Shown: positions 2,726-53,500 of the stretch, one piece after another
Position numbering within the stretch: the stretch's first letter is position 1
How the letters are laid out: each line of letters begins with the position of its first letter
Origin: an uncultured Methanomassiliicoccales archaeon
Lineage (GTDB): Archaea > Thermoplasmatota > Thermoplasmata > RBG-16-68-12 > EA-27
Assembly (NCBI GenBank): GCA_964396265.1
Contig: CAYNEM010000006.1
Coordinates: 60,789 to 124,788, forward strand
Reading direction: 5' to 3'
Length of the DNA stretch: 64,000 nt
Made by a program: the position numbers and the translations under genes
The notes under the pieces: generated by a model
What the model was told of the DNA's origin: nothing
The model's input: only the letters and a program-made list of their open reading frames with translations
Databases searched by the model: none

Positions 2726-4060
2726 GTGGTCGTCTGCCCGCTCGACTTCCGGTACGGCCGGCCCTCGATGAAGAGCCTGTTCTCCGAGGAGACGAAGCTC
2801 CAGCGGCTCCTTGACGTCGAGGCCGCCCTGGCGCGCGCGCACGCGCAGGTCGGGAACATCCCGCGGGATTCCGCGGAGGCGATCCGCAAGGCGGCGACGA
2901 CGAAGGGCGTCTCCCCGGACCGCGTCGCGCAGATCGAGAAGGAGATCGGTCACGACGTCATGGCGGTCGTGCTCGCGCTGTCCGAGAAGGCCGGGGACGC
3001 GGGGAAGTACGTGCACGTGGGGGCGACGAGCAACGACATCACGGACACGGCGACCGCGCTCCAGCTGCGGGACGCGCTCGACCTCATCGAGAAGGACCTC
3101 GTCCAGCTGAAGGGGGCTCTCCTGGGCCTCGCGCGGAAGCACAAGAAGACGATCATGCTCGGGCGCACGCACGGGCAGGCCGCTGTGCCGATTACGTTCG
3201 GCCTCAAGATGGCGGTGTTCGCGCTCGAGGTCGCGCGGCACGCGGACCGGCTTCGGGAGGCCCGGCCGCGGATCTGCGTGGGCAAGATGAGCGGCGCCGT
3301 CGGGACGGGCGCCGGGTATGGCCCGAAGGCCCTGGAGATCCAGGACCTCGTGATGAAGGACCTCGGCATCGGCTACGAGGAGGCGTCCGGGCAGATCGTC
3401 GGTCGGGACCGCCACGCCGAGCTGATGTCCGTGCTTGCGAACATCGCCGCGAGCGCCGAGAAATTCGCGACGGAGGTCCGGAACCTCCAGCGTACGGAGA
3501 TCGGGGAGGCGGCGGAAGCCTTCGGGGAGCGCCAGGTCGGCTCGTCCACGATGGCGAACAAGGAGAACCCCGTGACGAGCGAGAACGTGTGCGGCCTCGC
3601 GCGGATCGTGCGCGCCTTCGTCATCCCCGCGTACGAGAACGTCCCTCTGTGGCACGAACGCGACCTCACGAACAGCGCGGCAGAGAGGATCATGATCCCT
3701 CACGCCCTCATCCTGACGGACGACGTGCTCGCGAAGCTCTCGGACGTGTTCCGGAACCTCCGCGTATATCCCGAGCGCATGCGGGAGAACCTCGATCGCA
3801 CGAAGGGTCAGGCGATGGCGGAGTCCGTCATGCTGACGCTCGTGGGCAAGGGGATCGGCAGGCAGGAGGCGCACAAGCTCGTGCAGGACGCCGCCAAGAA
3901 GGCGAGGGAGAAGGACGCCGATCTCCGGGACGCGTTGGCGTCGGATCCGAGGATTGCCAAGGCGCTCTCGAAGAAGGAGATCGACGCGGCGCTCGACCCG
4001 AACGGATACCTCGGCTCCTCCGTGGAAATCGTGGACCGCATCGCGAAGAAGTACGGGTGA
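2726..4060 (+). CDS. purB: adenylosuccinate lyase
   Basis: N-terminus MVVCPLDFRYGRP.. and the fumarate-lyase signature (GSSTMANKENP), 444 aa. Classic PurB. Confidence 0.93.
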   Translation: MVVCPLDFRYGRPSMKSLFSEETKLQRLLDVEAALARAHAQVGNIPRDSAEAIRKAATTKGVSPDRVAQIEKEIGHDVMAVVLALSEKAGDAGKYVHVGATSNDITDTATALQLRDALDLIEKDLVQLKGALLGLARKHKKTIMLGRTHGQAAVPITFGLKMAVFALEVARHADRLREARPRICVGKMSGAVGTGAGYGPKALEIQDLVMKDLGIGYEEASGQIVGRDRHAELMSVLANIAASAEKFATEVRNLQRTEIGEAAEAFGERQVGSSTMANKENPVTSENVCGLARIVRAFVIPAYENVPLWHERDLTNSAAERIMIPHALILTDDVLAKLSDVFRNLRVYPERMRENLDRTKGQAMAESVMLTLVGKGIGRQEAHKLVQDAAKKAREKDADLRDALASDPRIAKALSKKEIDAALDPNGYLGSSVEIVDRIAKKYG

Positions 4061-5868: not shown

Positions 5869-6608
5869 ACGTCGCCGCGGAGCGGCGCAAGATTCTCGCG
5901 CAGATTCGAAAGCACGGCAAGAAAGGCGGCGACGCGTGGTTGCAGAAGTACGTCGGCTCACCCCATCCTGTGCTCGGGGTCTCCGTCCCGCAGATGCGCG
6001 CGATCTTGGCGGCGTTTCGAAAGGAGCATCGGGACGTGACCGCCAAGGAATCGAATACATTGGCGGTGGCGGTCTGGCGAGGAAAGACCTTCGAGGAGAA
6101 GGCGTTCGCCATCATGATGATGGACGGTTACGCAACGGTTCTCGACGAGCCTTCCTGGCGTCTTCTGGACTCGTGGGTCGACGCGTGCGTCGGCTGGGGG
6201 ATGTGCGACAGCATCGGCGCGGGACCGATCGCGAAAATGGTCTACGCGAAGCCCGCGCGTTTCCGCGACCTCCAGCGATGGGCGAAGTCGAGGAACCTTT
6301 GGCGGCGCCGCATTGCCCTGTACGCGCTCCACGACTTCGTGCTCGCGAAGGAACTGGACAAGCCTCTCCAGTTGATCGGGAGACTGCTGTACGACGAGGA
6401 GTTCTGGGTCCGGCGCGCCGTGGGCACCTGGCTGCGTGAGTGCTGGAAGCGGGACCGGGCGCGGACCGAAGCCTTCCTCGTGTCCCATGCTGGTGGCCTG
6501 CCCGCGATCGTGGTGACCGTCGCGACCGAGCGAGCGCCAGTCTACTTCCGGCGGAAACTGCGGACGCTCTCCAAGAATCCAGCGACGAGAGTCCGTGCGC
6601 GACGCTGA
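5865..6608 (+). CDS. DNA alkylation repair protein (AlkD/AlkC-like HEAT-repeat glycosylase family)
   Basis: 247-aa ORF starting at ATG 5865, which overlaps the ligase stop as ATGA. Sequence resembles AlkD-family proteins (..GKTFEEKAFAIMMMD..WDSWVDACVGWGMCDS..FWVRRAVGTWLRE..). Confidence 0.7.
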   Translation: MNVAAERRKILAQIRKHGKKGGDAWLQKYVGSPHPVLGVSVPQMRAILAAFRKEHRDVTAKESNTLAVAVWRGKTFEEKAFAIMMMDGYATVLDEPSWRLLDSWVDACVGWGMCDSIGAGPIAKMVYAKPARFRDLQRWAKSRNLWRRRIALYALHDFVLAKELDKPLQLIGRLLYDEEFWVRRAVGTWLRECWKRDRARTEAFLVSHAGGLPAIVVTVATERAPVYFRRKLRTLSKNPATRVRARR

Positions 6609-6687: not shown

Positions 6688-7959
6688 CTAGCCGCCCCCC
6701 GCCGAACCCAGACCGAACACATGAGGGGAGCCGGAGGATTGGGACGACGGACCTCCCGTGAGGTGCGCGACCTTGAGAGTATTGTTTGTTTCGTCGACGT
6801 AGGCGATCAGGCCAAACCCGTCCGAACCGATTGTGATCGAGGGGTACGTCCCGACGTTGGCCGCATCGTCGACGGTCACGATGACCGCCTCGGCACAGGC
6901 GGGGTTCGAGCAGTACGCGACCTTGAGGGCCGTGATTGCGCTGTCGCGGAGCGCGATCAGGCCGAGACCGTCAGGACCCACCGTCATGGAGGAATACTCC
7001 CCGAGGCTTCCGTCGAGGGTCGTCAGCTCTGCCTCGGTACAAGCGACATCCAAGCAATGGGCGACCCTGATGCCGGCGTCCGGCATGTCCATGTAGCTAA
7101 TCAGGCCGAACCCGTCCTTGCCAACCGCGATCGAGGTCCAGTGTCCCGTGTAACCCCCGCCATCGACGATGGTCACAGTAGCTCCGGAGCAAGCGGTATC
7201 CCGACAATGAGCCACCTTGAGATGACCGTCGGAGTCACCGAAGTAGCTGATGAGGCCGAGCCCGTCCGAACCGATAGCGATCGAAATGTATCCGCCAACG
7301 TAGCCCGCATTCTCAATCGTCGTCACGCTCGCTCGAGCGCAGGCGACGTCCAGGCAGTGGGCGACCAAGAGTTTCATGTTGTTGGCGTCCATGTAGCTGA
7401 TCAAGCCGAGGCCATCCGAGCCGATCGCGATGGAGCTGTAGGACCCGCCCATGACGTCGATCCTCGCGATGGTGGCCCGGCTGCACCGCGCATCCAGACA
7501 GTGGGCGACCTTGAGGGCGTCGTTCGTCGCGTCCAGATAGCTGATCAATCCTAGGCCGTCCGTCCCGATCGCGAGGGACGTATACCACCCTACAGCGTCA
7601 TCGCCATCGAGCGTCGCCAGCTCGGCCTCAGTGCACGCAATGTCCAGACAATGCGCAACCTTCAGGTCCGCGTTCGTTTCGTCGAAGTAGCTGATGAGGC
7701 CAAGCCCGTCCGACCCGATCTCAATTGAGGGAAATCGCCCGAGAGCGCCCTCGATGTGAACCGCGGTGATCCCGGAATTCGGGATGGCGATTCCGCCCTG
7801 CGAATCGTGCGAATCTTCCCTCGGAGCTGGCGCTGCGAGCACCGCGAGAGAAGCGAGGAGCACACCCAGCGCGAAAAAGCTGGCTCCCATGGTCATCGCT
7901 CGGCCAACCGAGGTCCGGAAGAGCGAGGCGGGAAGCACCGCCTTCCCGTGAGAGGCCAT
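6688..7959 (-). CDS. secreted repeat protein with seven tandem ~49-aa beta-propeller-like repeats (conserved IAIGSDGLGLISY..LKVAHCLDxAC)
   Basis: Signal-peptide-like N-terminus (MASHGKAVLPASLFRTSVGRAMTMGASFFALGVLLASLAVLAAPA; alternative starts at 7896/7890). Then 6.5 to 7 highly similar repeats, each with His-Cys-x-Asp-x-x-Cys. No named family recognised. Confidence 0.75.
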   Translation of the reverse strand: MASHGKAVLPASLFRTSVGRAMTMGASFFALGVLLASLAVLAAPAPREDSHDSQGGIAIPNSGITAVHIEGALGRFPSIEIGSDGLGLISYFDETNADLKVAHCLDIACTEAELATLDGDDAVGWYTSLAIGTDGLGLISYLDATNDALKVAHCLDARCSRATIARIDVMGGSYSSIAIGSDGLGLISYMDANNMKLLVAHCLDVACARASVTTIENAGYVGGYISIAIGSDGLGLISYFGDSDGHLKVAHCRDTACSGATVTIVDGGGYTGHWTSIAVGKDGFGLISYMDMPDAGIRVAHCLDVACTEAELTTLDGSLGEYSSMTVGPDGLGLIALRDSAITALKVAYCSNPACAEAVIVTVDDAANVGTYPSITIGSDGFGLIAYVDETNNTLKVAHLTGGPSSQSSGSPHVFGLGSAGGG

Positions 7960-8165
7960 GACGCGCGCAGGGGATTGTCTCCATAAAAGGGTTCCTGGCC
8001 CTCTCCGAATCTCCCGGGTTGTCTGTAGGACCTCCTCTCGTCGAGCCCCACCATCCCTGCCGTCGGTGAGTGAGAACTGGAACTGAGGAAAGCGCATTCC
8101 TCCCACAACGCACGCGGCGCGCGGCGCCGAAGGTTTAAGGCCCATTTCCCTCTCCCATTGACGAG

Positions 8166-9542
8166 ATGCCCGGAACCGCGGTCGTCGGCCTCCAATTCGG
8201 CGACGAGGGCAAGGGGAAGATCGTCGACGTCCTCGCTGGGGAGTCCGACCTCGTGGTGCGCTTCAACGGAGGAGCGAACGCCGGGCACACGGTCCAGGTC
8301 GGGAACGAGCAGTTCGCGTTCCGTCTCCTCCCGAGCGGCATCATCCGGCCGAAGGTCCTGAACGTGATCGGCAACGGCGTCGCCGTGGATCCCGGCCAGC
8401 TCCTCGAGGAGATCGACGGCCTGCGCAAGCGCGGGTACGCCGTCGACAACCTCCGGGTGAGCGACCGAGCGCACCTCGTGCTGCCGTGGCACAAGACGCT
8501 CGACGAGCTCGAGGAGAAGGCGAAGGGCAGCATGGCGGCGGGCACGACACGACGTGGCATCGGCCCCGTGTTCGAGGACAAGGTCGGGCGGTGGGGCATC
8601 CGCGTCACGGACGCGCTCGACGAGATCGTCCTCCGGAAGAAGCTCGACTCTATCTATCCCGTGAAACTCAAGATGTCCAACGCGCTCGGCGGCACGGACA
8701 CGTTCTCCCTCGACGCCGTGTTCAGCCGGTACCGCGGGTACGGGGCAAGGCTGCGCGAGTTCGTCACCGACACGAGCGTCGTTGTCCACGAGGCGATCCG
8801 GAGCGGCAAGTCCGTCCTGTTCGAGGGCGCGCAGGGCACGCTCCTCTGCGTTGATCACGGGATCTATCCCTACGGGACCGCGAGCGCCTGCGTCGCAGGC
8901 GCGGCGACGGTCGGCGCGGGTGTGGGGCCGACGGCGATCTCCGCCGTGCTCGGGGTCGTGAAAGCGTTCACGAGCCGCGTCGGAGAGGGCCCGTTCCCCA
9001 CAGAGGTCCAGGACCCCGTCGCGTCACACCTCCGGGAGCGCGGCGGCGGGGAATACGGGACGGTCACGCGGCGACCACGCCGGGTCGGGTGGATCGACCT
9101 CGTCATGCTTCGGATGAGCGCGCGGGTGAACGGGCTCACGGGCTTCGCGGTGACGAAGATGGATGTCCTGGCGGGGCTGGACGCCGTGCGGGCGGCGATC
9201 GCCTATGGCCACGACGACAAGGAGCTGCGGGACTTCCCCGCCAACCTGCGCATCCTCGGAGAGTGCAAACCGGTGTACAAGGACCTCGAGGGTTGGGGGG
9301 ACCTTCCTCCGGAGGAGTGGCGACGGATCGCTGCCAAGGGATTCGACGCGCTCCCGAAGGCCGCACGGGCGTATCTCCGATGGCTCGAGACGGAGCTGGG
9401 CGCCCCTCTCGCGTTCGTGTCCGTCGGCCGGGGACGGGAGGACACGATCGACTTGCGGAAGGCCGCCAAACCAACCGCCCCCCAGCGACCGAGGACGACG
9501 ACGCTCCCTCGGAAGACGAAACGTCGGAAGCCACGCCGCTAG
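8166..9542 (+). CDS. purA: adenylosuccinate synthetase
   Basis: MPGTAVVGLQFGDEGKGKIVD..NAGHTV.. P-loop and overall AdSS layout. Has a basic K/R/P-rich C-terminal tail. Confidence 0.92.
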   Translation: MPGTAVVGLQFGDEGKGKIVDVLAGESDLVVRFNGGANAGHTVQVGNEQFAFRLLPSGIIRPKVLNVIGNGVAVDPGQLLEEIDGLRKRGYAVDNLRVSDRAHLVLPWHKTLDELEEKAKGSMAAGTTRRGIGPVFEDKVGRWGIRVTDALDEIVLRKKLDSIYPVKLKMSNALGGTDTFSLDAVFSRYRGYGARLREFVTDTSVVVHEAIRSGKSVLFEGAQGTLLCVDHGIYPYGTASACVAGAATVGAGVGPTAISAVLGVVKAFTSRVGEGPFPTEVQDPVASHLRERGGGEYGTVTRRPRRVGWIDLVMLRMSARVNGLTGFAVTKMDVLAGLDAVRAAIAYGHDDKELRDFPANLRILGECKPVYKDLEGWGDLPPEEWRRIAAKGFDALPKAARAYLRWLETELGAPLAFVSVGRGREDTIDLRKAAKPTAPQRPRTTTLPRKTKRRKPRR

Positions 9543-43318: not shown

Positions 43319-46300
43319 TTAAAGGCTTTCCTCGTTCGTGTCCTCGGCTTTCTCGGCGTCGCGCATCTTGCGGAGGTTCTGCTCGTATGCTTCCTTGGAG
43401 ATGCGTCCCTCCTTGTAGGCCGTGCGCAACCGCGTGACGCGGTCGACATCGCGCATCGCTTCCGGTGGTGCCTCGGCCGCCCCGGTCGGTTCCGCGTTCT
43501 CCCCTTCGGGAGTTCCCACGTCCTCGATCGGTTCTTTCTGCTTGCGCGTCGGCAGGCCCGGGACGCGGATCCCGTACCGCGGGAGGACGAACCCGAGCAG
43601 CACCCCGAGGAAGATGCCGACCACCGCCAAGCCCGCAGGCAGCAGGAGCGCGGACGTGCCCGCCGGCGCGACCACGACGATCGTGAACCGCTGCTCGTCG
43701 ACGTTGCCGACCGCGTCCCGTGCGACGACGACCACGGTGTTCGTGCCGTAGCCCAGGGTCACGTTCGTCTCGAACGCGCCGCCCGGCGCGGCCACGTTGA
43801 TCCCGTTCACGGTCACGAAGGCCCCGGGCTCCGTCGTCCCCGCGATGCGCACGATGCGCGACTCCGTCCGCGCGGGCGGCAACGGGGCGAACGTCATCGT
43901 GGGGTCGGAGGTATCCCGCACGGCGGACGTCGTGGCGGTCACCTGGTTGCCCGCGGGATCGCGGACGATCGCGGTGATCGTGTTCGTGCCCTCGACGCCA
44001 AGCGTGACGACCTCTCGGAACGAGCCATCTGCGCCGACGGTGGCGGCGTTGCCGTTGATCTCCACGACGAGCGTCCTCGGATCTGCGGGCTCCACGCCGG
44101 AGAGCGCGTCCCGGACGAGGCCCGTCACGAAGACTTGCGTCTCCCCCGTCGCGAAGACCTCGGTGGTGAACCGCGGGATCTCCGGCGCCACGAGGTCGCG
44201 GACGATCGAGATCACGTGGCTCGTCGGGTTGCCGGGGATCCGGTTGCCGGCGCCGTCCTGGTCGAACCAGTCCGTGGAGCTCACTATCACGGAGTTCGTC
44301 CCGTTCTCGAGCGCGACCGTCTCGGAGAACGCCCCCGTGGCGTCCGTTTGCGTCCAGTTCCCGCGGACGCGGTACGACGCAAACGGCTCCGTCGCGCCGA
44401 CGACCGCGTGCGTGTCGAGCGTCGTGTACACGAGGTCGGGGGTCGAGAAGGTGAGGATTGGTACGGTATCGTCGACCACGAAGGTGAACGTCGCGTTCGC
44501 GAGGTTCCCGGCACGGTCTCCGACCCAGGCGTCGACGGTGTGCGTGCCCTCCGACAGGACCGCCGAGGGCGAGTACGTGGCCGTCCCCTCCCAGAGGGCG
44601 AACCGGTTCGCACGCGTCGTGTACAGGATGCTGACAATCGTCCGCGAGGACACGTCGACGCCGTCCAGGAGGAACTGCACGGAGTCGCGATCCAGCTGCC
44701 CGAGGTCCGGGTCCTCGAGGCTCACGATGAGGTACGGCGCCCGGTCGTCTGTCGTCCGGTTGTCCGCGCGGTTGAGGTTGCCGCCGAGCGCGGCGACCTG
44801 GAAGCTCACGATGCTGGGAGCGGCGCGGTCCAGGGTGACGGACACGGGGATCACGACGACGCCCGGCGCGGTCGGCAGGCCGAGGAGCACCGCCCCGCCA
44901 TATGGTGCGTCGACCGTGTCGTTCGGGAAGTCCCAGGTCACGCTGAGCGTCACGGACGCGTACGCCGCCAGCCCGGACTCCGTGCCGTTCACGATCTCTG
45001 CGGGCCTCGGCGCCTCCGGGACCTGGTACCCCGTCCCGGTGTCGAGCGTGACCGCGACGTCCATGTCGAAGTGCCCGATGCCGCCGGGGACCGTGAACCC
45101 GAGGACCTTGACGATGTACTGCCCGTCCGCAGGGGCCACCCATGTCACGCGCTCTTCCGCGTCGCCGTCCGCATTATAGTTCCACAGGCTGCCGCCCTGG
45201 CACAGGCCGGGCGCGACGGGCTGGCAGTCGATCACGAGGTACTCCTCCGGGTCGATGATGCCGTTCGCGTTCCCGTCGCGGAACACCGCCATGTCCAGGT
45301 CCTCGACATCGGACTGGCCGGCGATGTGGACCTCGAGGATGAGCGCCTTCTCCACCGTGAAGATGTAGGAGAAGGAAGCCCGGAACATCCACTCGCCCCA
45401 ACCGGGGAAGTTCCACCAGGTCTGCACGTCCTGCGGGATCTCCAGGTCCGCGAAGGCGGTCGTCGTCGCGGGGCCGACGGCGGACGCGCGGAGCGCGGGG
45501 AAGTTCATGTTCGAGAGGAAGGGGAAGGTCTCGCGGCCGACGAGGGCCCGCGTCACGACGTCGAGGCTCGTGGGCGCGGACACCCAGCCCGCTTGGCCGA
45601 CCGTGAGGGTCGCGTTCGCCTCGAGCCCGCGGAGGGCGAACGCGCGGACCGCGATCACGTTGAGGCCGGGGCTCAGGTCGTACGCGACGACCTCCTCGCC
45701 GCCGCCCGTCAGGGTGCGGAACTCCGGCTTGTCGAGCTCCTCGCTCTTCGCGACCTGGCGCAGGGGGAATGGGCCGTACGTCGTGGCGCTGCCCTGCGTG
45801 GCGGCGTCGCCGCTCGCGCGGTTGAACGCGAAGGTGTCGACGTCGCTCGGGGCGTCCTGCCACGCGGTGCGCACGATGACGCGGAGTCCCGCGGGCGCCG
45901 CGAAGAGGCCCTGGTCCGGGATCTCGAAGAAGAAGAACCGCCAGTCGCCCATGTGCGGATTGCGAAGCCGCGTCCCGCTCGCGAGCGTCTTGTCGTAGCC
46001 GCCGAAGACGCGGTGGTTGTCGTACAGCGCGGTGCTGGCCAGGTCGCCGCCGAACGTGAGGGACGGCGCGCGGGACCCGACGTTCGCGAGCACGGGGATG
46101 GTCGTCGTCACGCCGTTCGTAGTGTCGCGCACGAGGATGGCGCCCTCGTACGAGCCGAGCGCCGCGGTCGGGGGCACGGTCATCGTGGCGGTGATCACCT
46201 GGGAGCTATTGCCGAGGACGTTGGCGGTGCCCTGAGAGAGGGAGACCCACGCCCACGGCGCGCGGTCGAAGAACTCGATCACGAACGTCCAGGCAAGGCC

Positions 46301-49300
46301 GTCGATGTAGACGGGGGTGCCCGTGTCCTCGAGGCTCAGGACGAGACCCTCATGGAGGGACGTCGCGGGGAACGCCGCGCGGACCTCGAGGACGTTCGAC
46401 GTGTGGAACGTCTCGCCGACCGTGTTCAGCTCGTCGCGGAAGAACGCGGGAGCGGGGAACGGGTCGACCCCGACCCAGCGCGACCACTCGATCGTCCAGT
46501 CGTACGCACGCAGCGCGTACGAGTAGTTCGTCTTGAACTGCGTCCCTTGGTGTTCGACGAGCCGTCCCAGGTCTGCGTACGCGGTCACCTTCACGAGCTC
46601 CGCGTTCGCCCAAAGGCCCGCGATGGGTGGAGAGACCCGGATGCCGGTAAACGTCGTGCCGTCGACCTTCCATACTCCCGTCCCGTTCACCCAGAGGGCG
46701 ATGTCGCCGTTGGGCTGGTACGCGTCCCTGCGCGTCGCGTTGGCATGCACGTACTGGCCGATCTTCCGATAGGCGACCGCGTCGAGGTTCGTGGAGATCG
46801 CGGCCGTGCCGTGGTTCCTCAGAGTGAGCGCGAGCGGCGAGACACCCCCCGCATACAGGAGTCGCGTGAAGGCGGCGTGCGTGTTCCCTCGGTACGCGCC
46901 GGGATGCCACATCGGCGGCGTCACCTCGAGGCCTGCATCCGCGGTCCCCGCCGCGAGCCGCACGGAGCGCGAGACGTTGAGATATCCCGACCCTTGAGTG
47001 AGGACGTCGTGGCCTGCGTCGTCCGCGCCCGACAGGAGGAGCGACCGTACCTCCGAGACCGTCGGCGTGCGATTATTCGCCGCCGTGAACGCCTCGTACA
47101 CGAGGGCCGCGGCCCCCGCAACGACCGCAGCAGAGACGTCGGAGCCGATCATCGCTGCGGAGGTTACCGCCGAGCTCCCGTCCCCGGCGGCGTGGAGGGG
47201 GATCGCGAGGGTCGCGGTGTCCGCCGCCAGGAGCTCCGGCTTCACGAACCCTTGCGCGCTCGGGCCCCGCGACCCGGGGATTGCCGGGGCCCTCGCATGG
47301 GGGTTCGGCCCCTCGGGCCCGCCGGTCAGCAACGACTGCATCGTGAAGTCGCCCGCACGGCCGGCGGCGAGCACGTTCGGTCCGGAGGCGGGCGAGGCGA
47401 CCGTCCCGTACCCGAAGCCGTAGTCCCCCGCGCTCGCCACGAAGACCGCCCGTCCCCCGGAGTAGGTCGTGGACAGATAGTCGGCGGTGCGGGACGAGAC
47501 GTCCCAGCCGTCGTTGTGGACCGTCGGGAAGTTGAAGGCGCTCACGACCACGTGCGCGTCGTCGGTCGTCCCGACGGTGGCATCGTACCCCTCGACCGCG
47601 AACGTCCACGACTCCACCACGTCGCTCAGACCGTTCATGATCGTGATGAGCCGGCTCGCGTCGGCCAAGCCCGTGAGCGGCGTCGGAAGCCTTCCCTGCG
47701 CGACGATCGCGCTCGCGATCCGCGTCCCGTGCTCCGACTTCGCGCCGGTGATCGCGTCCACGCCGAAGTCCCCGGCGAGCGCGACGAGGTCGCCCGCCCC
47801 GGGGATGCGCATCAGGAGCCCCTCCGCAGCTTTCCGAGACAAGAGCCGTGCGGAGTACGGGACGGGGTTCACACCGTCTGCGATGAAATACACCATGCCC
47901 GCGGACACGTCCGGATACCCGTCCTGCCCCGGCAGCCCAGTGGTCGCGTTGTACGAGTCGAGCGCCGCGATCGGGCTCGCACGCGATGCGAAGACGTCCG
48001 TCGGGTCGAACACCTTGTCGTCGTTCATGTCGAAATAGACGCGGTCGTACTCGCTCGCGTTCGCCGTGTCCACGACGAGGAGGCCGAGGGCCCCGAACTC
48101 CCTCTGCACGGTCGGCGCGGGGTGGAAACCGAAATGGAATACTCCGGAGGCGCTCGTGAGCCCGGCGATCGAGTACTGCTCGATCTCCCGCCAGACCCAG
48201 GCGCTCAGGCTCACCCAGCCCGGGGTGAAGTCGAGGTTCTGGAAATCGACGTTCTGGTCCGAGGGCACGGTGTCCTGCGCACGGGACCCGGTCTCGTGCA
48301 TGGAGAAGAGGGTCGCGGACACCCCGGACGGATCGCCGAGCAGGGCCCGCGGGATCGAGAACTCGTTGAACAGCTGCTCGCCGAACTGGAACGCCGCTTG
48401 GGTGCCGCCCACGCCGAGCAGCGGGGAGGGCTCCCAAGCCCCCGAGGTCGCGTTCCACGCGTACCAGGTGCCAAACTCCATCCCGTGCACGTACTTGTTC
48501 TCCCGGTCCTCGTAGCGGCTGAACCCGTGCGCGAGGAGGGCGTAGTCCGGTCGGTGCGCGACGAACGTGCGGATGTACGCCCCGCCGGATGTCCACGACT
48601 TGGCGGTGAGGTCCCCGCCGCCCGTCGCGACCTCCCCGAGGACGGACCAGTGCACCGCGTACAGAGCGCCCGGCTGCGGGGTCTGGCGCACGAATGCGCC
48701 GCTGGCGTCGTACACGAGGAACGAGGGGGAGATGGAGGGCGAGAGGCCCTGCGTGGCCACGACGAACTGCGCGCCGCTCGGCGACCAGTCCGCCGCCAGG
48801 ACCCAGCTCTGGGCCTCGGGAAGCGTCGCAAGCAGGAGGGGGGCCGGGGGCGTCATGTCCCACAGTTTGGCGGTGTCGTCCCGCGCGCCGGTCACGAGCC
48901 GCGCCCCCGAAGGAGACCACGAGACCTCGACCACGGGCTGCGAGTGAGAGGAGGCGGTCTTGAGCGGGGTCGCGCGGACGACGGGCGTCGTGGGCTGCAC
49001 GTTCGTCCCGTTCAGCGAATAGACGACCGCGTTGTTCGTCCCGAGCGCGACCGCGATCTGGTCCGGCGCGCCCGGGCGGAACGCCACCGCATTGACCTCC
49101 GTGTTCTCGGCCCAAAGCGTGCCGAACTTCGTGCCCGTCGCGACGTCGAAGAAGTGCACGAACTTGAACGTGCTCGCGGCGATCCACGTGCCGTTCGGGC
49201 TGAAGGCGAGGATGCCGTTCTCGCTGATCGCCACGTCCCCGAAGGGCACGTACTGGATCTGGCGGACCAGACCACCCGTGGCCGCATCCCAGAGGCGCAG

Positions 49301-50314
49301 GAAGTCTTTGTCCGCGCTCGCGACCTTCGTGCCATCGGGGGACCATGCGACGCTGAGGGGCTCGCTCGCGTGGCCTGACATCGTATGGAGCACGGCGCCA
49401 GTCCGGTCCCAGAGGCGGACGAGGCGGTCTCCCGCCACGGTCGCGAGCTTCGACCCGTCGGGGGACCATGCGACGTCGTTCACGCGGTCCGCGTGCGACG
49501 CGTTCGTGTCGACGGTCGCGCCGCCCGGGGCCACGTACGCCCCGCTCGTCTCGTTGTCCACGTCGAACAGCACGACGAACGAGGCGTTCTGATCGCGCAG
49601 ATAGGCGGGATATCCCACGTACCAGTTGTCGTCGTCGCGCGTGATGGACAGCGTCGTGAGGTCCCAGTCCGCCTTGTCGCCGCCGGGCGCGCCGGCGCTG
49701 TTGTCCCGCGGGTCCGTGGCCCACCGCTCGCGGTCCCCGAAGTCGTTCGTACCGTCAACACGGATCGTGTGCGTGACGTCGAAGGGACCCGCGCCCGTCC
49801 TCGTCGTGTTTGCGAAGTACGTCGTGTCCGCGAAGCCCGTGCGGAGGTACGTCGTGAGGGACCGTGGATCGTAGACGATCGGCCAGCCGAAGTACGTCGA
49901 GTTCGGGTCCGTCACCACCGCCTGCGTGCCCTGGAGGTCGAGGTGCCCGAAGTCCAGACCCTCGTCGACGACCGCGACGCGCACGCCGGAACCCCGGTAT
50001 CCTAGGGACCACGCATCGTCGAATCCGTGGTTCGTGACGACGTTCGAGAGCAACGGCTGAGGCCCGACGGGCCCTTCCAAGGGCTGCGGGTAGCGAGAGG
50101 AAGGGTATTCCGCCAGGGGATCCGCCTCCGCGACGGGCTTGGCGGCGGAATCGGGGGCGATCGGGACGTCGCCTCCGGACTGGGGGACATCGGTCGCCGG
50201 CGGCATCTCCGCTGCAGCGCGGGGGGCGATGGGATAGCCCGCGAGGATCGAAAGGGCCAGAACCGCCACGAGGGCGACGGCTGAGACCCTCTGGCGGGGG
50301 TACCTCCTCCCCAT
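43319..50314 (-). CDS. giant (2331 aa) cell-surface protein: S8 subtilase-like domain interrupted by WD40 propeller, many beta-rich domains, C-terminal TM anchor and SHOCT-like tail
   Basis: Signal peptide. Subtilase Asp box AWSLGYRGSGVRVAVVDEGLDFGHLDL. About 700 aa with WD40 repeats (WSPDGSKLATVAGDRLVRLWD..). His box SEHGTRIASAIVAQG. An atypical Ser region (IGSDVSAAVVAGAAALV). TM (LAVVGIFLGVLLGFVL). C-terminal LRTAYKEGRISKEAYEQNLRKM (SHOCT-like). Confidence 0.8.
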   Translation of the reverse strand: MGRRYPRQRVSAVALVAVLALSILAGYPIAPRAAAEMPPATDVPQSGGDVPIAPDSAAKPVAEADPLAEYPSSRYPQPLEGPVGPQPLLSNVVTNHGFDDAWSLGYRGSGVRVAVVDEGLDFGHLDLQGTQAVVTDPNSTYFGWPIVYDPRSLTTYLRTGFADTTYFANTTRTGAGPFDVTHTIRVDGTNDFGDRERWATDPRDNSAGAPGGDKADWDLTTLSITRDDDNWYVGYPAYLRDQNASFVVLFDVDNETSGAYVAPGGATVDTNASHADRVNDVAWSPDGSKLATVAGDRLVRLWDRTGAVLHTMSGHASEPLSVAWSPDGTKVASADKDFLRLWDAATGGLVRQIQYVPFGDVAISENGILAFSPNGTWIAASTFKFVHFFDVATGTKFGTLWAENTEVNAVAFRPGAPDQIAVALGTNNAVVYSLNGTNVQPTTPVVRATPLKTASSHSQPVVEVSWSPSGARLVTGARDDTAKLWDMTPPAPLLLATLPEAQSWVLAADWSPSGAQFVVATQGLSPSISPSFLVYDASGAFVRQTPQPGALYAVHWSVLGEVATGGGDLTAKSWTSGGAYIRTFVAHRPDYALLAHGFSRYEDRENKYVHGMEFGTWYAWNATSGAWEPSPLLGVGGTQAAFQFGEQLFNEFSIPRALLGDPSGVSATLFSMHETGSRAQDTVPSDQNVDFQNLDFTPGWVSLSAWVWREIEQYSIAGLTSASGVFHFGFHPAPTVQREFGALGLLVVDTANASEYDRVYFDMNDDKVFDPTDVFASRASPIAALDSYNATTGLPGQDGYPDVSAGMVYFIADGVNPVPYSARLLSRKAAEGLLMRIPGAGDLVALAGDFGVDAITGAKSEHGTRIASAIVAQGRLPTPLTGLADASRLITIMNGLSDVVESWTFAVEGYDATVGTTDDAHVVVSAFNFPTVHNDGWDVSSRTADYLSTTYSGGRAVFVASAGDYGFGYGTVASPASGPNVLAAGRAGDFTMQSLLTGGPEGPNPHARAPAIPGSRGPSAQGFVKPELLAADTATLAIPLHAAGDGSSAVTSAAMIGSDVSAAVVAGAAALVYEAFTAANNRTPTVSEVRSLLLSGADDAGHDVLTQGSGYLNVSRSVRLAAGTADAGLEVTPPMWHPGAYRGNTHAAFTRLLYAGGVSPLALTLRNHGTAAISTNLDAVAYRKIGQYVHANATRRDAYQPNGDIALWVNGTGVWKVDGTTFTGIRVSPPIAGLWANAELVKVTAYADLGRLVEHQGTQFKTNYSYALRAYDWTIEWSRWVGVDPFPAPAFFRDELNTVGETFHTSNVLEVRAAFPATSLHEGLVLSLEDTGTPVYIDGLAWTFVIEFFDRAPWAWVSLSQGTANVLGNSSQVITATMTVPPTAALGSYEGAILVRDTTNGVTTTIPVLANVGSRAPSLTFGGDLASTALYDNHRVFGGYDKTLASGTRLRNPHMGDWRFFFFEIPDQGLFAAPAGLRVIVRTAWQDAPSDVDTFAFNRASGDAATQGSATTYGPFPLRQVAKSEELDKPEFRTLTGGGEEVVAYDLSPGLNVIAVRAFALRGLEANATLTVGQAGWVSAPTSLDVVTRALVGRETFPFLSNMNFPALRASAVGPATTTAFADLEIPQDVQTWWNFPGWGEWMFRASFSYIFTVEKALILEVHIAGQSDVEDLDMAVFRDGNANGIIDPEEYLVIDCQPVAPGLCQGGSLWNYNADGDAEERVTWVAPADGQYIVKVLGFTVPGGIGHFDMDVAVTLDTGTGYQVPEAPRPAEIVNGTESGLAAYASVTLSVTWDFPNDTVDAPYGGAVLLGLPTAPGVVVIPVSVTLDRAAPSIVSFQVAALGGNLNRADNRTTDDRAPYLIVSLEDPDLGQLDRDSVQFLLDGVDVSSRTIVSILYTTRANRFALWEGTATYSPSAVLSEGTHTVDAWVGDRAGNLANATFTFVVDDTVPILTFSTPDLVYTTLDTHAVVGATEPFASYRVRGNWTQTDATGAFSETVALENGTNSVIVSSTDWFDQDGAGNRIPGNPTSHVISIVRDLVAPEIPRFTTEVFATGETQVFVTGLVRDALSGVEPADPRTLVVEINGNAATVGADGSFREVVTLGVEGTNTITAIVRDPAGNQVTATTSAVRDTSDPTMTFAPLPPARTESRIVRIAGTTEPGAFVTVNGINVAAPGGAFETNVTLGYGTNTVVVVARDAVGNVDEQRFTIVVVAPAGTSALLLPAGLAVVGIFLGVLLGFVLPRYGIRVPGLPTRKQKEPIEDVGTPEGENAEPTGAAEAPPEAMRDVDRVTRLRTAYKEGRISKEAYEQNLRKMRDAEKAEDTNEESL

Positions 50315-50337
50315 GACATCGCGCGATGCTGCCGCCG

Positions 50338-50432
50338 TTATTTATATTGATGCCCGGAGCGTCGGGATCGTGCCCTTATCACCGAGCGCTCTGATTATTA
50401 TCCAGTACAATGAATTAATATAGACGCCACCT
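50338..50432. promoter_or_regulatory. AT-rich divergent promoter region between the two giant peptidase genes (TATA-like AATATAAATA for the minus gene; TTAATATAG for the plus gene)
   Basis: A 222-bp intergenic region, markedly AT-rich. TATA-like boxes lie about 30 nt from the minus-gene ATG and about 115 nt upstream of the plus-gene ATG. The plus gene has the SD-like GGAGTGGGG. Confidence 0.5.
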
Positions 50433-50536
50433 TCGAAAGGGAGGGACAAGGTGCGGGTCTGGGGAACTTTGAAATACCCCGGCCCTCTTAGCCGAGATTC
50501 GGGACAGGGTTTCGGGCTAGCCAGGGGAGTGGGGTC

Positions 50537-53500
50537 ATGCGTTTCGTCCGCTTTGCCGGTGTCGTCGCAATTGCAATCGCTTTCGTCGTGATCACGTCGC
50601 CGATCCGGGCAGGACCGGTCGCGGACGCGATGGGCTCGGGGGGCCCGGTCGTGGTCGTCGATTCGTACCGGATGGACCCGGGAGCACTGGTCGCTTCCGG
50701 GGCGAAGATCCTCGTCGACTACGATAACGGGTACCTCCTCATGCGCCTCCCACGGGCGAGCGCGAGCTTCTTGAGCGCCCTTCCGGGGGTCGACCCGCTC
50801 GAGGGGCGGACGCAGATCGACCTCTTCTTCTCCGGAATCGACTTCGACACCGCCGTCGCCGAGCCCGCGTTCACAGGGGGCATGGACGCCCCGACGGACG
50901 GGGCGTACCTCCTGCAGTTCCTCGGTCCCATCCGGAGCGAGTGGCTCGCGGACCTCGAACGGCAGGGCTTGGTGTTCGACCAGTACCTCGCGAACTATGC
51001 CTTCGTCGTCCGGGGCACGCCCGCGGCAATCGGGGCCGCGAAAGCCTCGCCCTTCGTCTCGTGGGTCGGCCCGTACCGTGCCGGGTACAAGATGTCGGCG
51101 GACCTCCTCGAGCACGAGGGCCTCGTCGACCTGTTCGTCGTCGGCTTTGGCGGCGTCGATGCGATGGTCCTCGCCCAGCACGTCGGGGCGACGGGCGCGG
51201 GCGTCGAGTCCATGTGGCCGTCCCCGGCCACCGTCCTCGCCCGGGCCCCCGCGTCCCTCCTGCTCGACCTCGCGAAGCTCCCGGACGTCCTCTACATCGA
51301 GGAGCGTTTCCCGTTCGTCACGATGGACCGGATCGCGGGTCAGATCCACAAGTACCACCCCGCGTGGGACACGAGCCGCAGCGGTCTCACGTCGAAACTC
51401 ACGGGCCGCTCCCCGGGCCCGGACAATACCATGTACAATTCGGACGATTACTTCGAGGGCGCGGGCATCCTCGACACCGGCTTCGACGAGGGGGACCCGA
51501 ACGACGGCACCCCCGACTTCTTTGACAGCCCGAACGGGGACCGCGTCACCCGCCTCTTCCGACACACGGGGCCCACTTTGGACGGCAGGTGCGGGTCCGC
51601 GCACGGGACCCACGTGGCGGGGATCATCGCCGCGGACGGGTACTCATGGGAGCGAGATCTGATCGAGGACTCCGGAGACACTTCGGTCTCCGTGACGGAC
51701 CAGGAGTGGCACAAGTCCGAAGCCGGCGTCGCGCCGGAGGCGAAGATCTCCCTGGACGGCACGCAGAACGGGAACGACGTCTTCTGCAGCGCGGGGCTCG
51801 CCGCGAGCCCCGCGTACTGGGACTGCCAGTACCTCAACGGCTACATCACGGTCACGCTCACCGCTGGCGTCAGCTCCGCGATCTGCGGGGCGCCATGGAT
51901 CGACGGCGTGAACGTCGTTACGCATAATTCCGCGATCGGTACGGGCGCGCGGGCTTGGTTCGCGCTCCACAGCAACAGCTGGGGCAGCGGCTCGCGGACG
52001 TACGGCGCCACCGCGGGCGGCGCAGATGGCCGGACCAACTCGGCCCCGGAGAGGCTCATCGTATTCGCCGCCGGGAACGACGGGCCCGACGCGAACTCGG
52101 TCAGCGGCGAGGCGCTCCTCAAGAACGGCCTCTCCGTCGCCGCCGGGCAGAACTTCCGCCCGGAGCAGTTCGAGTCGGACAACCCGAACCTCTTGGCGAG
52201 CTTCAGCAGCCGGGGCGGCCCCGGGGAGAGCAGCGGCCGGATCAAGCCGGATATCGTCGGCATCGGCACGTCCGTTGTCGCGCTCTTCGCGAGGGGCGAG
52301 ACCCTCTCCACGGGCTTCACGGCGGGTGCGGATCTCATCAACGAGGTCGACAAATATTGCAGCATCCCGAAGACCTACTGCTCGGGGGGCGACGCAATCG
52401 CGGACTACCGGTACCTCCAGGGCACGAGCATGGCGGCGCCCCACGTGACGGGCGGCGCCCTCCTCGTCCGCGAGTACCTCCGGGAGGTCGTGGCAGGTAA
52501 CAACCCCGCCTCCCCGTACTTCAACCCACCCTCGCAGCTCGTGAAGGCGATGCTGATCAACGGCGCGGTCCGCATGGACCAGAACCTGTACGCGTATCCC
52601 GGATACGACCAGGGGTGGGGGCGCATGGACCTCGAGCAGTCCCTGTTCCCGCCGGTCCCGCGGACGAACCAGATCGACATCGGGGAGTTCACGAGCACGG
52701 GCTCGTGGTCGCCCTCGAGCATGAACCTCAACGTCGTCGGGAACGACGTGCCCGTGAAGGTCACGCTCGTGTGGATTGACGCGACCGGGGACGCGCTGTC
52801 GCGGAACCTGAACCTCGTGGTGCGTTCCCCGAGCGGCGCCGAGTACCATGGGAACCGTTATCTGAACGGGTGGTCGAACCCCAGCGACGCCGCGTACGAT
52901 GGGATCAACAACGTGGAGCAGGTCGAGGTTCAGACCCCGGAAATCGGCACATGGACCGTCGAGGTCCGCGGGGTGACGATCCCGACCGCCGCCAAATTCG
53001 CGCTCGTGTTCTCCGCGAACATCGGCCCGCAGTCGACGTACAAGGTGGACCTGAGCACGACATATTCCACGACCGTGAGCCTCGCGCCTCTGGGGTCCGC
53101 CGAGATCCCGCTGACGACCCTGAACTACGGCACGGGCCCGGACCAGGTGCAGCTGTCGTCCGGGGCCCCGGCCGGCCTGACGGTCACCTTCTGGCCGAGC
53201 AACGCGATCAACCTCGGGAGCGCGCAGTCCGCGAACGTCCTCGCGAACTTCACCGCCAGCGTCGCAATCACCCCCGGGATCTACGAATTCGACCTCCGCG
53301 CGCGGAGCGCGAACGATCCGAGCCCGACGCCCGCATCGGACTTCATCGCGGTGCGCGTCGAGGTGCTCAGCACCCCGCTGCCGTTCCCCCTCCAAGTCAC
53401 GAACGGGCCTGTCGACGAACTCGACCCGTCCGTCCTCGTCTTCGAGGACCCGCCGGGCAGCCGCCACATCTTCATCGCATACCGCAAGACCGCGCAGGTC

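Follow-up and report, generated by a model that had tools for sequence, protein, structure and literature searches.

One gene of the archaeal DNA stretch analyzed here (64,000 nucleotides of contig CAYNEM010000006.1, hereafter the window) encodes a seven-bladed β-propeller composed of tandem repeats of about 49 residues, and this protein belongs to a very large, mostly bacterial family whose repeats almost without exception carry a pair of cysteines with the spacing C-x4-C. The account that we favor as a whole, and to which we give a slightly better than even chance of being right, is that the propeller is exported or anchored, is stapled by disulfides at its rim, serves as a multivalent glycan-binding or adhesion head, and is of bacterial origin. 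The propeller fold and the distant relation to BNR_4-like propellers belong to what is already known; what is new is the large uncurated family of cysteine-clipped repeats, the mechanism itself being unsurprising.

Tandem repeats, fold, and family of the propeller protein

The gene product runs from a basic N-terminus through a hydrophobic segment and a short linker into seven tandem repeats and ends in a Gly/Ser-rich tail of 24 residues (Table 1). The seven repeats of about 49 residues recognized in the initial annotation, a model's reading of the sequence alone, are confirmed: their period is 48–50 residues, the element G.DG.GLI recurs at residues 82, 132, 180, 230, 280, 328, and 378, and a hidden Markov model (HMM) built from the repeats of other proteins recovers all seven at 49–80 bits (i-E 1e-15 to 1e-25), the top score among 200 shuffles being 5.7 bits. 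The six full repeats share a mean pairwise identity of 51% (range 40–64%), and they appear to be old and diverged rather than the outcome of a recent duplication or an assembly artifact, because no tandem repeat was detected at the DNA level in the gene by Tandem Repeats Finder.

The AlphaFold2 (AF2) model of the protein, computed with an input alignment of 34 homologues, contains exactly 28 strands and has a predicted local distance difference test score (pLDDT) of 87.6, exceeding 90 for 320 residues, and a predicted template modeling score of 0.84. Repeat numbers in the 271 family proteins are multiples of seven, namely 7 (189 proteins), 14 (32 proteins), and 21 or 28, and together with the model they strongly support the seven-bladed β-propeller that had been surmised from spacing and strand pattern. 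Among solved structures, Foldseek placed the fucose-binding lectins PLL and PHL of Photorhabdus first (E ~1e-13, template modeling score 0.63–0.80, 11–14% identity), ahead of the GH145 enzymes (BT3686, E ~1e-12) and sialidases; the tabulated values for the model compared with known structures were 35.6 for CylK, 32.9 for virginiamycin B lyase (Vgb), 32.2 for the BP39L lectin, 30.9 for the PLL lectin, 28.9 for YncE, ~28 for integrin alpha, and 25–28 for GH145, PL42, and PL25. Each repeat would fold into four strands, A (YtSIaIG), B (GLISY.D), C (dLKVAHC), and D (a.v.T.D), and these are predicted to be strands A–D of one and the same blade, because the mutual information among 1,306 gap-free consecutive repeat units couples the fourth strand to the third one within the same repeat (z 5.1; B–C hairpin as positive control, z 4.9), not to the first strand of the next repeat (z 1.6). 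Since the fourth-type strand pairs in this way with the third strand within one repeat, the additional fourth-type strand that precedes the first repeat is likely to be the outer strand of blade 7, providing the 'velcro' closure of the propeller.

The initial annotation could not assign the repeat to the YVTN, NHL, PQQ, or SBBP families, and our searches reproduced this outcome: no family of Pfam or NCBIfam matches the window protein, for which no propeller model is returned even at E ≤ 10, and none of the propeller models of Pfam (YVTN, NHL, PQQ, SBBP, WD40, Kelch, FG-GAP, and BNR) was found in the repeats of 35 members at E ≤ 1, the FG-GAP match in P0035 being a separate extra domain. Matches to DUF1936 (PF09151), Peptidase_M76, aRib, and FliC_D2 were rejected as spurious sums of low-complexity repeat matches; the window protein scores 13.7–14.2 bits against DUF1936, presumably a zinc-ribbon-like domain, with a cut-off of 25, and in homologues this score is the sum of matches of 11–15 residues to HCxxxxC segments, none of which is significant individually. 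Literature searches returned no description of the cysteine-type repeat.

A word-indexed search found at least 1,390 homologues, and a profile search of 1.84 billion representatives found 15,106 clusters at 50% identity with E ≤ 1e-3 (4,827 with E ≤ 1e-30), including proteins of 3,000–7,000 residues that contain several propellers, up to four per chain. The size of the family and its mostly bacterial membership had escaped the initial annotation, as had its distant kinship with a cysteine-free repeat that matches Pfam BNR_4; nearly all family members come from bacteria or metagenomes and are annotated as hypothetical, and the names of the clusters are 'hypothetical' or collagen labels only. 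The names 'preprotein translocase subunit Sec61beta' and 'cell shape-determining protein MreC' given by JGI to P0005, P0022, P0030, and others seem to have arisen from short spurious profile matches, the NCBIfam Sec61beta match spanning 15 residues of P0056. Identity to the window protein reaches 48–67% among the matches listed in the sequence searches; named relatives come from a Thermoplasmata metagenome-assembled genome (67% identity), Roseiflexaceae (37%), Dehalococcoidia (35%), and Poseidoniales (25%), and a further member was found in Nitrospirales.

Most bacterial members have seven cysteine pairs and an abrupt conserved end, ...LKVAHCxNxxC-x-P-[YF]-[FV]-RRR. The window protein and its Thermoplasmata orthologue (locus L001) represent a minority variant that reads AHL(S/T) and has neither the seventh pair nor the bacterial tail nor a stalk domain; in the window protein, the place of the seventh pair and of the typical end is taken by the Gly/Ser-rich tail, which is not kept in the orthologue. 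The ending C-x-P-[YF]-[FVL]-R-R-R-COOH straight after the seventh pair, as in P0012, P0014, and P0048, is absent from the window protein; it may act as a channel plug, a sorting signal, or a contact with a stalk.

The relative from Poseidoniales is a giant protein of a widespread cysteine-free repeat, SIALDxxGxPHISYYDxxNxDLKYA..G..W (the Trp-type repeat), which occurs in giant surface proteins of archaea and bacteria. Because the cysteine-type profile (699 units) aligns by hhalign with the Trp-type repeat over 45 columns with a probability of 96.8% and E 2.5e-10 (reversed and column-shuffled controls, 0.1–0.3%), and because Pfam BNR_4 scores 55.9 bits (cut-off 27.3) in the Trp-type part of the Poseidoniales protein, the cysteine-type repeat is best seen, as judged by these profiles, as a variant of the BNR_4-like framework. 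BNR_4 propellers include the PL25 ulvan lyases and the carbohydrate-active enzymes of GH145 and PL42. The link is transitive only, as neither the window protein nor any of the 35 cysteine-type members matches BNR_4 (PF15892) directly. The A strand, a GxDG-like loop, ISY.D, and LK.A are common to BNR_4 propellers, the Trp-type repeat, and the present repeat, whereas the C–D hairpin of the latter is three residues longer than that of the Trp-type repeat and has H-C-x4-C where the Trp-type has 'G..W'. A search of the PDB with the Trp-type segment returned designed TIM barrels only. In the locus of Candidatus Poseidoniales AG-343-E09 (L004, 1–13074), an open reading frame (ORF) of more than 4,358 residues that runs off both ends contains RCC1-like 'CWG.N..GQLG' repeats together with many Trp-type propeller repeats, and a repeat of this locus, YCTTTCSSASSW, which has a cysteine pair (C-x3-C) plus Trp, may be intermediate between the two repeat types.

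The cysteine pair and its neighboring histidine

All 12 cysteines of the window protein are paired (104/109, 154/159, 202/207, 252/257, 302/307, and 350/355). The invariant AHC-x-D-x-x-C motif of the initial annotation, described there as Cys-x3-Cys, has in fact the spacing C-x4-C (CxDxxC) and holds in five repeats; the sixth reads AYCSNPAC, and the seventh reads AHLTGG, without cysteine. Across the family, 2,064 of 2,072 unique repeats (99.6%) contain the complete pair, the column entropy of each cysteine being 0.0 bits; of the 865 repeats analyzed first, 852 contained the pair, 11 lacked it altogether, and 2, which were truncated, had a single cysteine of the two. The paired cysteines are thus lost together, and hydrophobic export segments occur here and in the homologues, a combination expected of an intra-blade disulfide. 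The preceding histidine, by comparison, is conserved in only 70% of the repeats, its replacements being K (210), R (121), Q (115), and V (55), as well as I and L, and the cysteine pair is intact in the repeats where it is replaced; in the Roseiflexaceae homologue, which reads LKLAVCxDAxC, the Asp of the GxDG loop is lost as well. Accordingly, of the site comprising one His and one Cys pair that had been proposed for each blade, the pair holds family-wide and the His does not.

The model places the first cysteine at the very end of the third strand and the second in a loop of 7 residues that leads to the fourth strand. With the strand pairing indicated by covariation, C-x4-C would be located in the outer C–D hairpin and on the rim of the propeller, not in the central channel, the orientation for which the initial annotation had suggested a check. 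Because the histidine is dispensable and the pair is predicted to lie on the rim, a disulfide clip is preferred, and C-x4-C is more likely, on the grounds of conservation and predicted position, to be a disulfide staple of each blade than part of a ring of metal sites. Most likely, the six C-x4-C pairs form disulfides that staple the outer C–D hairpins, and together these staples would encircle the propeller at the rim of the face bearing both chain termini. The histidine before the first cysteine may stabilize the blade together with the Asp of the GxDG loop: at positions 30 and 11 of the repeat, respectively, they co-vary, with an odds ratio for co-occurrence of ~3.9, and resemble a blade-stabilizing hydrogen-bond pair rather than metal ligands. 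WD40 propellers have a structural tetrad of Asp, His, Ser/Thr, and Trp, to which the present family is analogous in that its His and Asp recur in each blade and co-vary, but the family has no WD40 sequence similarity and the residues are located in other strands and loops.

The initial annotation had envisaged a ring of metal or disulfide sites. For the metal version, His30, Cys31, and Cys36, possibly joined by Asp11, would coordinate an ion of Zn, Cu, or Fe in each blade, and the protein would bind metals, sense them, or act in redox reactions outside the cell; this would accommodate the occurrence of H-C-x4-C once per blade, the covariation of Asp11 with His30, and the fact that the sole recurrent Pfam similarity is the short, summed HCxxxxC match to DUF1936. 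We nevertheless regard such a ring as very unlikely, because His30 gives way to K, R, Q, V, I, or L in 30% of the repeats while the cysteine pair stays, so that His, Cys, and Cys are not conserved jointly as metal ligands would be, and blade 6 of the window protein has Tyr in place of the histidine. Moreover, His30 and Cys31 are adjacent in a β-strand, so that by general geometry, with the strands taken from the model, their side chains would lie on either side of the sheet; the family consists of exported proteins, in which paired cysteines are usually oxidized; and no DUF1936 stretch is significant in the homologues, the window protein reaching 14 bits against the cut-off of 25. Given the possibility of a two-cysteine site, what the evidence excludes is only an obligatory histidine ligand; that the Cys-x4-Cys loops on the rim work as a ring of sites active in redox chemistry or binding thiophilic metals is, in our estimation, the least probable of the readings considered here.

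Candidate roles of the propeller

The initial annotation described the protein as secreted. The sole basis for this is the hydrophobic stretch near its N-terminus, which may be either the core of a Sec signal peptide or an N-terminal membrane anchor; the segment is disordered in the AF2 model, and the homologues likewise start with signal-like segments. In the homologues, the propeller is fused to collagen triple helix, CBM5/12, FG-GAP, PKD, and Laminin_G_3 domains, to thrombospondin-3 plus RTX repeats, and, with a score below the Pfam cut-off, to an SLH anchor, all of these partners being extracellular stalk, anchor, or binding modules. On contig Ga0506511_0000006 (JGI 3300050230; locus L006, 4829–21518), at least 10 paralogues stand in tandem, with genes for a sulfotransferase and a large glycosyltransferase upstream of them; each paralogue begins with a signal peptide, continues with an SLH-like segment FGDVP..HDAINRVYAAGIMRAC (Pfam SLH 17–18 bits, under the cut-off) and seven repeats, and closes with a C-terminal CTPFYRSSR, and an array was likewise noted in L007. 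The most variable element of the repeat is the B–C loop (2.99 bits), which by topology projects from the side remote from both chain termini and from the Cys and GxDG loops, away from a stalk or membrane, and this side is the probable ligand-binding face. The PLL/PHL lectins, which are secreted and multivalent with sugar sites between the blades (PMC5584973), and the BP39L/CV39L lectins of Burkholderia and Chromobacterium are similar to the present family in having seven blades, four-stranded repeats of ~47–50 residues, and high internal symmetry. A domain cluster of 'ambiguous function' that overlaps with BNR_4 has been reported to occupy the tip in predicted fibrillar adhesins (PMC9210967). 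The fusions, the tandem paralogue array, and the lectin-like fold neighbors suggest that the propeller is an extracellular binding head, and we propose that it would mediate multivalent binding or adhesion, probably to a glycan.

Several points weigh against the favored account as a whole or set the protein apart from the lectins. The model shares only 9–15% identity with solved structures throughout, and phmmer and family-profile searches of the PDB sequences, including PLL, PHL, and BP39L, gave only a chance match to LolA. The PLL/PHL-type lectins differ from the present protein in lacking a per-blade cysteine pair, the one disulfide reported for them being inter-subunit, and in having no detectable sequence homology to it, and their Trp-lined sugar pockets were not identified here. 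The covariation is modest and mixed with subfamily signal, couplings of the same column in adjacent repeats being dominant, and the position and facing of the cysteine pair derive from the secondary structure of the model and from covariation. The only anchor-like element of the window protein is its N-terminal hydrophobic segment; stalk and anchor domains are absent. Finally, no ligand, binding pocket, or conserved gene neighborhood was identified; the neighborhoods of L001, L005, L009, and L011 share nothing with the window, so that an attempt to derive the function from an operon was dropped.

That the propeller is instead a carbohydrate-active or other enzyme, a hydrolase or lyase with a single active site on one face, comparable to GH145, PL25, PL42, Vgb, or CylK, is in keeping with the Foldseek match to BT3686 and with the homology to BNR_4 through the Trp-type repeat. 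We consider it unlikely, since the conserved residues are identical across the blades and the repeats within a protein are 45–81% identical (family mean 62%; window protein 51%), leaving no asymmetric constellation of the kind found in an active site, and since the domain is present two to four times per chain in the giant proteins and also terminates collagen, PKD, and SLH-like stalks, an arrangement typical of binding modules; a direct Pfam match to BNR_4 or any enzyme family was not obtained. Unlike the present family, GH145, PL25, and PL42 enzymes are not internally symmetric, and the C-terminal propeller of CylK and Vgb (9–12% identity) act inside the cell or in biosynthesis, each through one asymmetric active site, and are devoid of cysteine pairs and of sequence repeats of the present type. 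The extreme conservation of the framework with its invariant cysteines, the SLH-like N-termini and tandem paralogue arrays in a bacterial contig, and the make-up of the window protein, which is an N-terminal anchor and a propeller only, would also be understandable if the propeller were a purely structural element, that is, a rigid, disulfide-hardened block of an envelope or S-layer-like coat without specific ligand. This is rather improbable in our view: the variable B–C loops and the rapid diversification of the paralogues fit recognition better than packing, a binding role is indicated by the fusion partners CBM5/12, Laminin_G_3, and FG-GAP, and there was no sign of lattice formation. The binding or adhesion head is thus the role that we retain for the propeller.

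Gene, origin, and significance

The coordinates of the gene and of the features of its product are compiled in Table 1. A longer ORF extends up to 8145, and a start codon at 7959 (MASHGK...) is plausible. A block of 19 nucleotides upstream of this ATG contains a TATA-like TTTTAT (7983–7988), whose center is ~26 nucleotides from it; in the Thermoplasmata orthologue L001, the same block is found at 5902–5920 with two mismatches and at an equal distance from its own ATG, and the consensus of both, GGAACCCTTTT(AT/GA)GGAGAC, is kept although the flanking genes differ. As this distance agrees with the established spacing rule between TATA element and transcription start in archaeal promoters, the sequence of the block suggests a TATA/B recognition element (BRE) promoter producing a leaderless transcript that would begin at the ATG. 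Scans for sigma-70 promoters and terminators gave no match, the models used being unsuited to an archaeon.

Table 1 Features of the propeller gene and its product in the window
Feature	Positions	Strand	Basis or remark
Propeller gene, complete, 423 residues plus stop	6688–7959	minus	ORF and translation, 1,272 nucleotides
Promoter-like block GGAACCCTTTTATGGAGAC	7977–7995	minus	Sequence and conservation in Thermoplasmata orthologue L001
Hydrophobic segment MGASFFALGVLLASLAVLAA, residues 24–43	7831–7890	minus	Kyte-Doolittle maximum 2.18 over 19 residues, from residue 24
N-terminal fourth-type strand, residues 61–68	7756–7779	minus	First of 28 model strands
Seven tandem repeats, whole span	6763–7740	minus	Repeat HMM matches
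Repeat 1	7591–7740	minus	Repeat HMM
Repeat 2	7453–7590	minus	Repeat HMM
Repeat 3	7297–7446	minus	Repeat HMM
Repeat 4	7150–7296	minus	Repeat HMM
Repeat 5	7009–7146	minus	Repeat HMM
Repeat 6	6853–7002	minus	Repeat HMM
Repeat 7, truncated after strand 3	6763–6852	minus	Repeat HMM
A[HY]C-x4-C motifs, six	6895–7656	minus	Putative disulfide clips of C–D hairpins
Motif AHCxDxxC, blade 1	7633–7656	minus	
Motif AHCxDxxC, blade 2	7483–7506	minus	
Motif AHCxDxxC, blade 3	7339–7362	minus	
Motif AHCxDxxC, blade 4	7189–7212	minus	
Motif AHCxDxxC, blade 5	7039–7062	minus	
Motif AYCSNPAC, blade 6	6895–6918	minus	
Gly/Ser-rich C-terminal tail LTGGPSSQSSGSPHVFGLGSAGGG	6691–6762	minus	Disordered in model, pLDDT <50

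That the window is archaeal is shown by the housekeeping genes near the propeller gene, which are purB, an archaeal-type ATP-dependent DNA ligase, a DNA alkylation repair gene, purA, and TtuA. The G+C content at third codon positions (GC3) of the propeller gene is 0.78 (overall G+C content 0.63), compared with 0.89–0.94 in the flanking housekeeping genes, the adjoining DNA alkylation repair gene also being lower (0.81), and among the matches listed there is only one close archaeal relative versus many bacterial and metagenomic ones. Because its GC3 is below that of its neighbors and close archaeal relatives are scarce, we infer that the Thermoplasmata archaeon probably obtained the gene by horizontal transfer, its source being a family found mainly in bacteria. 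An origin from a phage or plasmid was rejected, as plasmids gave no match, viral contigs gave a single match at a contig edge, and the structures of BFVD matched the window protein as generic propellers only.

The propeller gene lies between purB (2726–4060) and purA (8166–9542), and a collagen-type homologue, P0059, lies directly upstream of guaB-guaA (L009, 8606–11340); a link to purine synthesis through purA/purB and guaA/guaB was dismissed as coincidence, the two cases having no orthologues in common. Elsewhere in the window, two divergent giant ORFs encode 2,340 residues (43319–50341, minus strand) and 1,808 residues (50492–55918, plus strand), both with N-terminal hydrophobic segments and Peptidase_S8 (subtilase) domains, the product of the former also having a WD40-type propeller (residues ~275–531) and glucodextranase-B-like and Big_13 domains. 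Judging from these domains, the two are probably large secreted proteases of the archaeon.

The window gene is an ordinary member of its family, and the interest of the finding lies mainly in the annotation gap that it exposes: at least 15,000 clusters at 50% identity, with tandem paralogue arrays, have no curated model, and a profile of the 'Cys-clipped' repeat would annotate thousands of proteins that are now 'hypothetical' or misnamed. The near-absolute conservation of a disulfide-capable pair in each blade would also make the family a clean model for the stabilization of extracellular blades. Were the redox or metal ring true, the family would constitute a very large, unrecognized group of surface proteins by which prokaryotes capture metals, sense them, or carry out thiol-disulfide exchange; if the propeller is a lectin-like binding head, a major recognition module would be added to the catalogue of microbial surface proteins.

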